A stretch of 64,000 nt of DNA from an uncultured Thermoleophilia bacterium (GCA_963834905.1 CAWIDR010000006.1:1388-65387); one strand, 5' to 3'. Shown: positions 2,133 through 20,785, counted from the first letter of the stretch. The notes: generated by a model from the letters alone, not told the origin. A program made the numbers and translations.

Positions 2133-4694
2133 TCAGGCAGCGCCGCCCTCCTCCCATGCCTCGATCTCCACGAGGCACGAGTTGGCCGCGAGGGCGTGCG
2201 CCTTGCGGATCATCATCCGGCTCGGCGTGAGCACGTTCATGCACCCGCCCCTGTCGGCGGAGTGCCCCGGCTCGCCCACGGGCTCGTAGCGGGCGGACGA
2301 CTCGTACGAGTGCACTGTACCTGCCGGGACGCGTTCCGTCAGCTGGACCGCGCAGATCACGGCGCCGCGGTCGTTGAAGACGCGGACGAGCTCGTTGTGC
2401 TTGAGCCCGCGCGCGGCCGCGTCGGCGGGGCTCACGCGCACGACCCAGTAGTAGCGGCCGTCGACGAGGACGCGGTGGTCGCGGATGTCGTTGGTGACCG
2501 CGTCCTTGCCGTCGCTCTGCGTGTGGAAGCTGTGACGCGGGTGCGGCGTGATGAGCTGCAGCGGGATACTGCGCGTAGAGCTCCTCGGCGTGCGGGCCCT
2601 CCCACGCCGGCACGTAGCGCATGATCGGCGCGCGCTCGGGGTCGTCGGGGTCGAACCGCTTGAGGCTCGACGCCTCGAACTCCAGCTTGCCGGACTGGGT
2701 CTGCAGCCCCATGCCGAACTCCTCGGTGTAGTCGGCGGGCAGCGGCGTGAGCTCCGGCGTGTCCTTGGCGCGACCCTCCGCGAACCAGCGGTACGACACG
2801 GGGTCGCGCCGGTCCGCCGGCGACGGCGGGATCACGTAGTAGCCCTTCTTGAGGAAGTCCTTCCACGAGATGGCGCGGGGCAGGTCGGTGGCGTCGAACA
2901 GCCGCTTGCACCAGTCGAGCTCGGTGACGCCCTCGGCGTACATCGTCCCCGAGCCCGAGGCGCATGGCCAGGTCGAGGAAGATCTGGTGGTCGGACTTCG
3001 ACTCGCCCAGCGGCTCGATGCACTTGTGCTGCATCACGGCGACGCGGTGGTTGCACTGCGTGTAGGCGTGCTGGATGTAGCCGCCGCAGTTGGCGAACTC
3101 GCTGATGTCCCAGCGCTCGAAGTTGGTGCAGGCCGGCAGGATGACGTCGGCGAACTTCGTCTCGCCCTCCATCCAGATGCCCTGGTTGACGACGAACTCG
3201 AGCTTGTCGGAGCGGTACATGTGGGCGAACCGGTTGGTGTCGGTCATGGTGCCGAAGTGCGAGCCGCCGTACTTGTAGTACATCTTGACGGGGCTGTGGC
3301 CCGGCGCCGGATACTCGAAGCGCTGGAACTGGCCCTCGATCGACTTGGAGTCGGTCGGGTAGCCCTCGCAGTGGCCGTCGAGGACCGCCTCGGGGATCTT
3401 GAGCCGCGGCACGGCCTGCGAGATCGTGTTGACCGTGGGGAGCTGCGGCATGCGCTGGTACATGTTGATGCTGAGCGCGGTGCCGTAGAGGTCGCCGGAG
3501 TAGCCGCCCTCCGCGTAGCCCGGGGAAGAAGAAGTGCGTGTCGAGCGGCGTGCCCTGCTGCAGGCAGCCCATGTTGACGCCCGGCTTGCCCAGGCCCTGC
3601 ATGGCCATCAGGCAGACCATGCCGCGCGCCCAGTCGCTGCCGGTGGCCGTGCGGCAGGCGCCGCCGAAGCCGATGAGGCCGCCGGCGGCGAGGTAGGTCT
3701 TGCTGCGTGCCCCAGGCGCGCGCGAGCGCACGCACGTCGCGCGCGGGGACGCCGGTCTCCGCCTCCTGCCACTCCGGCGTCTTGGGCACGCCGTCCTCCT
3801 CGCCGAGGACGTAGGCGCGCCACTTCTCGAAGCCGACGGTGCGCTCGGCCACGTACTCCTTGTCGTACAGGCCCTCGGTCATCCACACGTGGGCGATGGC
3901 GAGGACCATGGCGCTGTCCGTGCCCGGCCGGGGGGCGATCCACTTGCCGCCGAGGAACTGCGCGGTGTGGTTGTGGAACGGGTCGATGTGCACGCAGGGG
4001 ATGCCGAGCTCCTTGAGCCACTGCCGGCGGACGGTGCCGTCGTGGGCGCCGTAGACGCCGCTCGTCGCCTCCGGGTCCGAGGACCAGAACACGACCATCT
4101 CGGCGTGCTTCAGCAGGTCCTCGACGGTGCCGTAGGTCTCGCCGCCGCCGTTGCGGGCGGTCTGGCCCCAGTGGTGCGAGGCGCCCCAGAACCAGCCCTC
4201 CCAGCTGTCCGGATTGTGCACGATCGGCGTCCAGCCGATCATGTTGAAGAAGCGGATGCGGGCGCTCAGCCAGTAGCCGAGCACGCCCCAGGTGTGGTGC
4301 GAACCGCTGCCGTTCATGATCGCGCCGGGGCCGTGGTCGCGCTTGACCCGCTTGATCTCGCGAGGCGACCAGGTCGAGCGCCTCGTCCCAGCTGATGCGC
4401 TCGTAGCCGGAGGTCCCGCGGTTCTGCGGGTTGCGCTCGCCGTCCGGGTCGAAGTCGACCCGCTTCATCGGGTACAGCAGGCGGTCCGGCGAGTAGATGA
4501 GGCTCTTCCAGGCGAGCGTGTGCGAGTTGACGGTCGTCTTGCGCGGCGGGGTGAAGCTGCGGCCCCGCGCCTCGATCGTCCACGGCTCGGCGTCGTCGTC
4601 GTCGAACTCGATGGGGGTGATGCGCAGGATGCGCCCGTCGCGGACGTAGACGAAGACCGGGCCCGCCGTTGGTGTTGCTGGTGTAGCGGCGCAC
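2133..4694 (-). pseudogene. Molybdopterin oxidoreductase large subunit, pyrogallol-phloroglucinol transhydroxylase (AthL)-like, copy alpha1; frame broken at least 6 times
   Basis: ORF fragments in three frames join into one protein of about 853 aa.
- GTG 4694: VRRYTSNTNGGP | VFVYVRDGRILRITPIEFDDDDAEPWTIEARGRSFTPPRKTT...
- ...NGSGSHHTWGVLGYW..HNPDSWEGWFWG...
- KTYLAAGGLIGFGGACRTATGSDWARGMVCLMAMQGLGKPG
- ...ILPACTNFERWDISEF...
- C-terminal [33 protein letters not shown] (2133..2441).

There is no N-terminal CxxCxxxC cluster and no Tat signal. The family call rests on my memory of Pelobacter AthL. Confidence 0.75.
3094..3144. repeat. 51-nt stretch identical to 8362-8412 (alpha1/alpha2 paralogue core encoding ILPACTNFERWDISEF)
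   Basis: Direct comparison: cgaactcgctgatgtcccagcgctcgaagttggtgcaggccggcaggatga occurs in both copies. One mismatch follows, then 12 more identical nt. Confidence 0.9.
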
Positions 4695-4739
4695 GCCGCC
4701 GCCCGCGTCGACGCCGGCCTCGAGCTCCGACGGTGAACA

Positions 4740-19957: not shown

Positions 19958-20785
19958 TGGGCAAGGTCCTCGTCATCGATCTGAACATCTGCAACGGCTG
20001 CTACAACTGCCAGGTGGCCTGCAAGGACGAACACGTCGCCAACGACTGGTCGCCCATCGCCAAGCCGCAGCCCGACACCGGGCAGTTCTGGAACAAGGTC
20101 ACCGACCTCGAACGCGGCCAGGTGCCCAAGGTCAAGGTCACCTACATGCACAGCATCTGCCAGCACTGCGACGACGCGCCGTGCATCCCGGCCTGCAACG
20201 TCGAGGCGATCTACAAGCCGCGACGACGGGGCCGTGATCATCGACCCGGACAGTGCCGCGGCAACCAGCTGTGCCTGGAGGCGTGCCCGTACGAGGACGT
20301 CATCTACTTCAACGACTCGCTGAACATCGCCCAGAAGTGCACGTTCTGCGCGCACCTCCTGGACGACGGCTGGACCGAGCCGCGCTGCGTCGACGCCTGC
20401 CCGACCGGGGCGTTCACGGTTCGGCGACGAGGACGATCCCAAGATCAAGGAACTCATCGCCAAGGCCGAGCCGCTCAAGCCCGAGCTGGCCGTGAAGCCG
20501 CGCGTCTACTACATCGGGCTCCCCAAGCCGTTCATCGCCGGCGCCGTGTTCGAGCCGGAAGTGGACGAGTGCACGGAGGGCGCCAAGGTCACCGCCATGA
20601 AGATCGGCAACGGCAAGGTCTACGAGGCCGTCACCGACAGCTACGGCGACTTCTGGCTCAAGGACGTCGAGCCCGGCGAGTACACCGTGCTCGTCGAGAA
20701 GCAGGGCTACCTGCCGCAGAAGATGGGCCCCGTCGATGCCAACAAGGACATCAACGTCGGCGACATCGCGGTCTGGAAGGCCTGA
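19954..20785 (+). CDS. Fe-S (beta) subunit, BthL-like, copy beta3; three frame changes (about 20219, 20255, 20425)
   Basis: MMGKVLVIDLNICNGCYNCQVACKDEH...CQHCDDAPCIPACNVEAIYK | RDDGAVIIDPD | CRGNQLCLEACPYEDVIYFNDSLNIAQKCTFCAHLLDDGWTEPRCVDACPTGAFT | FGDEDDPKIKELIAKAEPLKPE...VFEPEVDECTEGAKVTAMKIGNGKVYEAVTDSYGDFWLKDVEPGEYTVLVEKQGYLPQKM. The start overlaps the alpha3 stop. Confidence 0.8.

Follow-up and report, generated by a model that had tools for sequence, protein, structure and literature searches.

Why should one bacterial locus carry three genes that resemble the large subunit of a single enzyme, the pyrogallol-phloroglucinol transhydroxylase (AthL/BthL) of Pelobacter acidigallici? The block in question occupies positions 2133-20785 of a 64,000-nt stretch of DNA from an uncultured Thermoleophilia bacterium (GCA_963834905.1 CAWIDR010000006.1:1388-65387; 70% G+C), called the window below, and encodes the large subunits alpha1, alpha2 and alpha3 together with the iron-sulfur (Fe-S) subunits beta2 and beta3. 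In our view it is probably a catabolic locus in which (poly)hydroxybenzenes are converted anaerobically and in which three non-equivalent enzymes of the AthL/BthL branch would be combined with a molybdenum supply and a system for attachment of molybdopterin guanine dinucleotide (MGD) of their own. The nearest relatives of the window are Thermoleophilia metagenome-assembled genomes (MAGs), mainly long-read bins. One of them (loci L003 and L091 on contig CAVZIA010000011.1) is collinear with window positions 2-14335 at 91.7% nucleotide identity and extends past the window. All five alpha and beta genes are frame-shifted in the window; several relatives hold intact orthologues, and each gene was repaired by frameshift-tolerant alignment with an intact orthologue.

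A first-pass annotation of this DNA had proposed three AthL-like large subunits, and matches to solved structures, identities to AthL and Pfam domains all bear this out. The core of alpha1 (2133-4694, minus strand) matched the large subunit of P. acidigallici pyrogallol hydroxytransferase (PDB 4v4c_A) with 1062 bits over residues 6-868, followed by a dimethyl sulfoxide (DMSO) reductase with about 254 bits; alpha3 reached 457 bits against 4v4c_A. Identity to AthL amounts to 63% for alpha2, 56% for alpha1 and 37-38% for alpha3, which agrees with the earlier remark that alpha3 is the more divergent one. The Pfam domains AhtL-like_1st (PF21423), Molybdopterin and Molydop_binding are present in alpha1 and alpha3 (PF21423 with 105.6 and 43.4 bits, respectively), and PF21423 is also carried by an alpha2 orthologue. 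Against BthL (4v4c_B), beta2 scored 278 bits over residues 1-271 of 274 and beta3 179 bits over residues 6-260. Both alignments reach the C-terminal beta-sandwich, which accounts for the extra C-terminal domain noticed before, and both proteins match Fer4_11 as well as CarboxypepD_reg in the C-terminal domain. The overlap of two beta genes with their alpha genes, described earlier, takes in the stop codon of alpha2 in the case of beta2 and that of alpha3 in the case of beta3.

The frame-corrected N-termini of the alphas and betas contain neither a twin-arginine (Tat) motif (S/T-R-R-x-F-L-K plus hydrophobic region) nor a CxxCxxxC FS0 motif, the alphas having a single cysteine or none there; the absence of both features, already noted on the uncorrected sequence, thus survives frame repair. 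The motif PDSWEGW occurs in all three alphas, and alignment showed that the Mo ligand predicted from AthL, Ser175, is conserved with its neighbours in each of them. These comparisons place all five subunits in the AthL/BthL family on sequence grounds. At the family level the AthL/BthL-type architecture proposed for the locus is therefore supported: AthL is by far the best match among solved structures, the betas end in a BthL-type domain, and frame correction brought out neither Tat signal nor FS0.

No NCBIfam model (TorA, BisC, DmsA, YnfE and others) reached its cut-off for the alphas, the best matches giving 320-380 bits against cut-offs of 778-1465, which likewise keeps them outside other characterised DMSO-reductase clades. 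The idea that the enzymes reduce S-oxides or N-oxides, as reductases of the DMSO, trimethylamine-N-oxide (TMAO) or biotin-sulfoxide type do, draws on homologue names at JGI ("trimethylamine-N-oxide reductase", "S/N-oxide reductase-like"), on bisC_fam and TorA as the best NCBIfam matches, and on P. acidigallici extracts, which can use DMSO in assays of transhydroxylation. It is barely credible, since these NCBIfam scores lie far under the cut-offs of 900-1465, alpha1 prefers AthL over DMSO reductase as given above, there is no Tat signal, and the locus has PF21423 and a BthL-type beta with beta-sandwich, which are missing from DorA, TorA and BisC.

Do the three alphas represent one enzyme type? 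We aligned 158 full-length homologues from fetched loci with AthL and the three window alphas and calculated a neighbour-joining tree, in which three clades were distinguished. The AthL-type clade (n=27) holds AthL and alpha2 and is marked by His-His-Tyr-Arg-His-Asp-Ser-Trp-Trp at AthL positions 144/145/152/153/154/174/175/176/354. Its sister, the SCP2-fused clade (n=72), holds alpha1; its commonest signature at the same positions is His-His-Tyr-Trp-Leu-Asp-Ser-Trp-Phe, and 71 of its 72 members have an N-terminal extension of about 165 aa. The alpha3-type clade (n=60) is distant and monophyletic, with His-Gly-Ala-Cys-His-Asp-Ser-Trp at 144/145/152/153/154/174/175/176. Asp174-Ser175-Trp176 is invariant across the clades. 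In contrast, the residues that we take to contact pyrogallol, notably Arg153, are retained in the AthL-type clade only, and the transhydroxylase pocket set of His144, Arg153, Tyr404 and Tyr560 plus Trp354 is complete in alpha2 only. The alignment shows that the three alphas fall into three clades with distinct residues at the predicted substrate-contact positions. Three active-site signatures in three clades lend weight to the earlier suggestion of three different substrate specificities.

The canonical member is alpha2. It retains His144, Arg153, His154, Asp174, Ser175, Trp176, Trp354, Tyr404 and Tyr560 of AthL, with Tyr565 replaced by His, and equals AthL at positions 144/145/152/153/154/174/175/176/354/404/560. 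Its partner beta2 has 11 of the 12 cysteines that hold the three [4Fe-4S] clusters in BthL, Cys23 being replaced by Asp. This position, the place of the fourth cysteine in ferredoxin motif 1, holds Asp in 88% of the sequences in the subclade of alpha2-linked betas and Cys in BthL and the other beta types; an Asp-ligated or a [3Fe-4S] cluster may result. Some Thermoleophilia/Actinomycetota relatives (L008 967-3807, L006 4494-7274, L110, L126) encode one more paralogue, whose identity to P. acidigallici AthL is 74-82% and thus much higher than that of alpha2; the window has no copy.

For alpha1, the catalytic core proposed at 2133-4694 stands, but not its start: the open reading frame (ORF) continues upstream to an ATG at 5198. 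Orthologues of alpha1 are uninterrupted ORFs of 980-1040 aa, and of 79 loci from different phyla about 70 have the fused ORF. Alone, the extension of alpha1 gave no significant Pfam match. In a 53-member alignment, 20 of the 53 sequences matched Pfam SCP2 weakly, and a profile search yielded weak SCP2-like PDB matches. An AlphaFold2 model (predicted local distance difference test, pLDDT, about 80-96 over residues 20-110) begins with a long helix, to which an alpha/beta domain is joined. Foldseek placed the UbiJ-SCP2 structures 6h6o and 6h6p on top (probability 1.0, template-modelling (TM) score 0.65-0.69), followed by SCP2 C-terminal domains of alkylsulfatases and by classical SCP2 proteins. 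By this model, the extension has an SCP2 fold. The leading helix is strongly hydrophobic in most lineages. The N-terminus of alpha1, MAGRERRAAR, was considered as a Tat signal and rejected: it lacks a hydrophobic h-region, forms part of one long predicted helix, and in other lineages the protein begins with the helix itself and has no RR. An exhaustive search of representative sequences with the extension found 308 clusters with the domain always N-terminal, but most are short fragments, so that the search is uninformative on other architectures; a word-indexed protein search found just 21 proteins, mostly truncated.

The substrate-contact signature of alpha1 is Trp153/Leu154/Phe354, with Tyr404 kept, and no beta gene of its own lies adjacent in the window. 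The SCP2-fused type also occurs in the denitrifiers Thauera, Magnetospirillum and Noviherbaspirillum. A protein of T. chlorobenzoica (WP_075147811) bears the UniRef name "3,5-dihydroxybenzoate hydroxylase large subunit" and is 98% identical to a protein of T. aromatica LG356 (L162). Alpha1 shares 65% identity with WP_075147811 over 973 aa, SCP2 part included, compared with 56% for AthL; its nearest named relative, as judged by sequence identity, is by annotation a water-dependent hydroxylase and not a transhydroxylase. The T. aromatica LG356 locus (L162 812-5200) contains an SCP2-fused alpha (ORF of 1030 aa), a beta and two cupin genes, and probably represents a dihydroxybenzoate hydroxylase cluster. 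Farther along follow an NAD-binding dehydrogenase, an M24-family peptidase-like gene and a tripartite ATP-independent periplasmic (TRAP) transporter, these neighbours having been assigned by reading ORF translations.

The pair alpha3/beta3 departs furthest from AthL/BthL. Alpha3 keeps His144, Asp174, Ser175 and Trp176, has Gly, Ala and Cys at 145, 152 and 153, and does not conserve the Trp354 and Tyr560 regions; the stretch around Tyr404 was left unaligned by HMMER and MAFFT. The clade is large and exceptionally well conserved: database clusters of the alpha3 type number more than 120 at 82-95% identity (Thermoleophilia, Chloroflexota, Aminicenantes and others), and their names are generic or misleading throughout. 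The beta subunits of this type carry extra invariant cysteines at BthL positions 80, 99 and 105 (51 of 51 sequences), which brings the total in beta3 to 15. On alignment, the extra cysteines of beta3 coincide with cysteines that ligate clusters in ArrB (6cz7_B) and PsrB (2vpw_B), both of them four-cluster proteins. Furthermore, the fourth cysteine of group II is kept and group III reads C-x5-C-x3-C-P, a C-x5-C spacing that resembles the distal [3Fe-4S] FS4 site of NarH. The fourth-site cysteines are missing from BthL, from beta2 and from the betas of the SCP2-fused clade. A fourth, distal Fe-S site of the NarH/PsrB type is predicted for beta3.

Pyrogallol-phloroglucinol transhydroxylase (EC 1.97.1.2) works with 1,2,3,5-tetrahydroxybenzene as cosubstrate; its reaction is redox-neutral, and no role has been assigned to its Fe-S clusters. 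The predicted distal site of beta3 suggests that alpha3/beta3 is a true redox enzyme: because the distal site appears restored, whereas transhydroxylation is redox-neutral, alpha3/beta3 would exchange electrons with a partner and so would act as a net hydroxylase or dehydroxylase. The surroundings of alpha3-type genes vary, and solute transporters are common among them. Of six annotated loci, three have an Amidohydro_2 gene near the alpha3-type gene, directly beside it in L144 and L148 and about 5.5 kb off on the same stretch in L147; the Amidohydro_2 family includes non-oxidative hydroxybenzoate decarboxylases. These neighbourhoods were read from annotated contexts, as unsupervised clustering of ORFs merged into one cluster through spurious alternate-frame ORFs of high G+C content. 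Directly 3' of beta3 lies a tatA/tatE-like gene (20995-21207, plus strand; Pfam TatA_B_E, 60 bits), and no alpha or beta has a twin-arginine signal.

The alphas might instead be redundant, that is, three isoenzymes of pyrogallol-phloroglucinol transhydroxylase that act on the same substrate and differ in regulation. In favour of this, His144, Asp174, Ser175 and Trp176 are found in all three, Tyr404 in alpha1 and alpha2, and two IclR regulators in the block. Redundancy of this kind is nevertheless highly unlikely. Each clade has its own fixed residues at positions 153, 154 and 354, and keeps them over many phyla; the Trp354 and Tyr560 regions are missing from alpha3, and beta3 has an additional predicted Fe-S site; moreover, all three clades are old and conserved, the alpha3 type with the 82-95% identity across phyla mentioned above.

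Are these genes still functional? Frameshift-tolerant alignment revealed nine +1 insertions in alpha1, about 18 indels and one in-frame stop in alpha2, one indel each in beta2 and alpha3, and three in beta3. Frame shifts were also present in the aldehyde dehydrogenase gene (about 8), IclR2 (about 7), modB (5), modC, the mobA-mobB fusion and housekeeping genes further along the window. Substitution frequencies relative to the orthologue at codon positions 1, 2 and 3 were 0.020, 0.014 and 0.079 for alpha1, 0.018, 0.014 and 0.067 for beta2, 0.044, 0.033 and 0.132 for alpha3, and 0.081, 0.062 and 0.146 for alpha2. Since relatives are intact, substitutions are concentrated at third codon positions and housekeeping genes all over the window are frame-shifted as well, the frame shifts are likely sequencing or assembly errors. 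Alpha2 is the least certain case; on account of its weaker third-position bias it could be a real pseudogene. A plot of G+C content at third codon positions (GC3) was tried as a frame-shift map of the window and dropped as too noisy.

If the locus, or at least alpha2, were a decaying remnant, the frame shifts and the stop would be real mutations and the enzymes would not be made. The indels and the stop of alpha2, with a third-position bias that is only about two-fold, point in this direction, as does the peak of indel density at 2-15.5 kb (alpha1, IclR2, alpha2, mobAB, aldehyde dehydrogenase, modB). We regard decay as unlikely all the same. Beta2 adjoins alpha2, yet it has a single indel and a strong third-position bias. 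Real bacterial indels are biased toward deletion, whereas all nine alpha1 indels are one-base insertions, roughly half of which lengthen a short run of G or C. Orthologues are intact in several relatives, the database copies of alpha1 orthologues from comparable long-read MAGs are likewise fragmented, and frame errors affect housekeeping genes elsewhere in the window. Two regions outside the locus illustrate the same pattern. At 34546-37388 (minus strand), overlapping ORFs merge an L-aspartate-oxidase-like (FAD_binding_2) domain with one for quinolinate phosphoribosyltransferase, a further sign of window-wide single-base indels, and the over-long ORF of a pterin-dependent aldehyde:ferredoxin oxidoreductase (AFOR_N, AFOR_C; 46357-48579, minus strand), 26 kb from the locus, suggests more frame errors.

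Table 1. Features of the molybdoenzyme block and its left flank, in window coordinates.
Feature	Position	Strand	Description
SDR-B	1-312	-	first 104 codons, cut by the left window edge; matches L003 13996-14796; Pfam adh_short
SDR-A	568-1335	-	short-chain dehydrogenase (SDR); Pfam adh_short_C2, 216 bits
IclR1	1343-2119	-	intact, 13 nt downstream of alpha1; HTH_IclR, IclR_C; 99% identical to the L003 orthologue, no indel
alpha1	2133-5198	-	1018 aa after frame repair; helix and SCP2-fold domain (about 165 aa; predicted) fused to AthL-like bis-MGD subunit; insertions at about 4970, 4915, 4722, 4664, 4360, 3702, 3524, 2950 and 2565
IclR2	5531-6385	-	Pfam match on window sequence; about 7 frame shifts
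beta2	6555-7389	-	BthL-like Fe-S subunit with C-terminal beta-sandwich; one +1 insertion at about 7170
alpha2	7386-9997	-	canonical AthL type; most damaged gene of the block; about 18 indels and one TGG-to-stop change
MobA-MobB fusion	10170-11352 (start approximate)	+	molybdopterin guanine dinucleotide synthesis; frame-shifted
aldehyde dehydrogenase	11832-13300 (start approximate)	-	about 8 frame shifts; Aldedh, 582 bits on the orthologue
Moco riboswitch	13462-13623	+	Rfam RF01055; 56.6 bits against a gathering score of 36 over the whole model, E = 7e-11
modA, modB, modC	13616-16587	+	molybdate ATP-binding cassette (ABC) transporter; SBP_bac_11, BPD_transp_1, ABC_tran and TOBE; modB and modC frame-shifted
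MobB2	16631-17164	+	stand-alone; Pfam MobB, 144 bits
alpha3	17359-19957	+	divergent AthL-family large subunit; one +1 insertion at about 18223
beta3	19954-20785	+	BthL-like Fe-S subunit with beta-sandwich; indels at about 20218, 20252 and 20416

The remaining genes of the block (Table 1) were recognised by Pfam on window or orthologue sequences, in line with the earlier listing of mobA-mobB, a second mobB, modABC, two IclR regulators, SDRs and an aldehyde dehydrogenase. The identity of SDR-B, the MobA-MobB fusion and the aldehyde dehydrogenase was checked on the intact collinear orthologues of L003/L091; the L091 orthologue of the fusion has NTP_transf_3 and MobB, and the fusion also occurs in L143. 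On the minus strand the order is alpha2, beta2, IclR2, alpha1, IclR1, SDR-A and SDR-B, and on the plus strand MobA-MobB fusion, riboswitch, modABC, MobB2 and alpha3-beta3. What had been taken for a possible molybdenum cofactor (Moco) riboswitch scores above the gathering threshold of RF01055 5' of modA, its 3' end reaching the probable modA start at about 13616. L143 follows the same arrangement logic with a molybdate transporter of the MOT1 family in place of ModABC. The description of the block as a "self-contained" Moco island is overstated: it covers molybdenum uptake and MGD attachment, and no moa, moe or mog gene was recognised in the block or the rest of the window by partial Pfam scans and reading of ORF translations, which do not amount to an exhaustive hidden Markov model scan. 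An ORF of 95 aa between mobA-mobB and the aldehyde dehydrogenase gene (11424-11711, minus strand) is conserved in L003 and L091 and has no Pfam match. Unrelated to the locus, genes for a PucR-type regulator, an acyltransferase of the AAT/C45 family and a methyltransferase of the MttB family stand in a row at 52088-58063 (minus strand), and a tRNA gene lies at 45178-45251 (minus strand; Rfam tRNA, 65.5 bits).

Into which pathway might the products flow? Beyond the point that corresponds to the left edge of the window, L003 carries genes for an SDR, a 3HCDH-family protein, a third IclR regulator, a Cyclase (PF04199), a cupin, a BKACE-family protein and a solute-binding protein; the cyclase has no close solved relative in the PDB. 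In the anaerobic phloroglucinol pathway of Clostridium scatologenes, PGR, DPGC, TfD and TAL belong to the SDR, Cyclase, 3HCDH and BKACE families, respectively (PMC10470551). In collinear relatives, the locus abuts genes of all four phloroglucinol-pathway families, and by this context SDR-B is a candidate phloroglucinol reductase. Desulfobacterota, Dehalococcoidia and other lineages likewise have the set of SDR, cyclase, 3HCDH and BKACE genes beside their SCP2-fused alphas. Among loci with Trp153/Leu154 SCP2-fused alphas, 27 of 84 had two or more of DPGC, TfD and TAL in the fetched flanks, compared with none of 41 loci with the Tyr153/Ile154 form (DbhL-like, proteobacterial), giving a Fisher p of about 5e-6 that is uncorrected for relatedness. 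Alpha1 is of the Trp/Leu subtype, the one that co-occurs with phloroglucinol-pathway genes.

The paralogues are also linked elsewhere. Alpha3-type genes lie within 10 kb of AthL-type genes in 14 fetched loci and of SCP2-fused genes in 5 (Acidobacteriota, several Desulfobacterota), and AthL-type genes within 10 kb of SCP2-fused genes in 5. Recurrent linkage next to a phloroglucinol pathway fits enzymes that act on related phenols or on successive intermediates. Biochemical precedent exists in the transhydroxylation sequence from hydroxyhydroquinone to phloroglucinol (cited in PMC3971608); genes assigned to its steps were not found in the literature searched.

From these data the following division of labour can be proposed. 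Alpha2/beta2 would convert pyrogallol to phloroglucinol by hydroxyl transfer as in P. acidigallici, a redox-neutral reaction that needs no electron outlet. Alpha1, without a beta of its own, may use beta2. With Trp and Leu in the places of Arg153 and His154, its substrate is probably a ring of the resorcinol type with fewer hydroxyl groups; hydroxylation or transhydroxylation of this ring would yield a compound that feeds into the phloroglucinol pathway. The SCP2 domain and leading helix of alpha1 may serve as a module for contact with the membrane or a quinone, or for holding a cosubstrate. Alpha3/beta3 would be an oxidoreductase, either hydroxylase or dehydroxylase, for another phenolic and would exchange electrons with a soluble partner. 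The two IclR regulators presumably control expression, ModABC under control of the riboswitch would supply molybdenum, and the MobA-MobB fusion and MobB2 would serve MGD attachment.

A bolder version, which we regard as speculative and rather doubtful, holds that the three clades are separate catalysts of sequential hydroxyl-shuffling steps with benzenetriols and benzenediols as substrates, that the SCP2 domain holds a quinone or tetrahydroxybenzene, and that the restored distal cluster makes alpha3/beta3 a net hydroxylase or dehydroxylase. Pelobacter massiliensis reportedly handles such a series, comprising hydroxyhydroquinone, tetrahydroxybenzene, pyrogallol and phloroglucinol. If this were true, soil Thermoleophilia, Chloroflexota and Desulfobacterota would gain an oxygen-independent funnel from plant phenols into the phloroglucinol pathway.

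Several points weigh against a polyhydroxybenzene locus with three distinct activities. The functions of the window proteins and of their close relatives are read from sequence comparison. SDR-B was not upheld as phloroglucinol reductase by its sequence, as 5g4k/5g4l, which we believe to be phloroglucinol-reductase-like, came only sixth to seventh among its PDB matches. The name "3,5-dihydroxybenzoate hydroxylase" on WP_075147811 is a database annotation. Apart from the SDRs, the genes of the phloroglucinol-pathway families are not part of the window and are known from relatives only, and the co-occurrence counts (27/84 and 0/41) are phylogenetically non-independent. The neighbour-joining tree carries no support values, and the roles of AthL residues His144, Arg153, Asp174, Tyr404 and Tyr560 are those reportedly assigned by Messerschmidt et al. 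2004. Finally, alpha2 shows a weaker third-position bias (0.146 vs 0.062-0.081), about 29 indel bases and one stop.

A structure exists for just one enzyme of the AthL/BthL branch of molybdoenzymes, and to our knowledge two more are known genetically. A family survey names PgtL and RhL as the only aromatic-hydroxylating members (PMC10100899). In the literature searched, we found no Thermoleophilia members, no SCP2 fusion and no four-site beta, nor a characterised actinobacterial member, as the first-pass annotation had supposed. New findings are that alpha1 is longer and SCP2-fused, that the three genes belong to three clades with markers for each, that beta3 has a predicted extra Fe-S site, that a phloroglucinol pathway adjoins the locus in relatives, and that the frame shifts are window-wide. 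Two of the three alphas belong to subtypes without a characterised member. Three distinct subtypes stand side by side in one common uncultured soil lineage, and subtypes co-occur in several other phyla. At present such proteins go by the names "TMAO reductase", "selenocysteine-containing dehydrogenase" or, generically, "molybdopterin oxidoreductase"; residues 153/154/354, the SCP2 fusion and the extra Fe-S site would improve their annotation as subtype markers. The subtypes also offer three expression targets in the search for oxygen-independent reactions, new ones among them, that hydroxylate or transhydroxylate phenols. Under anaerobic conditions, the breakdown routes of tannins and flavonoids meet at phloroglucinol; this breakdown is relevant to the "enzyme latch" concept, by which phenols endure in peat and anoxic soils.

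How do the window enzymes compare with known systems? With AthL/BthL of P. acidigallici (PDB 4v4c, 4v4d, 4v4e) they share a predicted cytoplasmic alpha/beta bis-MGD organisation lacking FS0 and Tat signal, the AthL-specific first domain, Ser175 flanked by Asp174 and Trp176, and a ferredoxin-type beta with beta-sandwich. They differ from it in the Asp for Cys23 of beta2, in the SCP2-fold domain, Trp153/Leu154/Phe354 and missing adjacent beta of alpha1, in Gly145/Ala152/Cys153 and the loss of the Trp354 and Tyr560 regions in alpha3, and in three extra cysteines in beta3. The 3,5-dihydroxybenzoate hydroxylase DbhLS of Thauera and the resorcinol hydroxylase RhLS of Aromatoleum anaerobium are water-dependent, membrane-associated enzymes of the same family. 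Alpha1 falls into the same SCP2-fused clade and is 65% identical to the UniRef-named DbhL, a link that consists of one database name. In contrast to the Tyr153/Ile154/His354 of that type it has Trp153/Leu154/Phe354, its subtype keeps the company of a reductive phloroglucinol pathway instead of a denitrifier context, and its host belongs to the Thermoleophilia. Beta3 resembles PsrB (2vpw_B), ArrB (6cz7_B) and NarH in the fourth cysteine of group II and the aligned cysteines of group III, but is otherwise nearest to BthL, whose beta-sandwich it has, with no adjoining gene for a membrane anchor and no Tat signal. Multi-copy AthL/BthL operons have been described in sediment Chloroflexi genomes, where they were taken to degrade pyrogallol or plant polymers (Hug et al. 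2013, PMC3971608). There, as in the window, several AthL-like alpha/beta operons occur in the genome of one uncultured anaerobe; whereas those copies were treated as equivalent, the copies in the window differ in domains, in active-site residues and in predicted Fe-S content.

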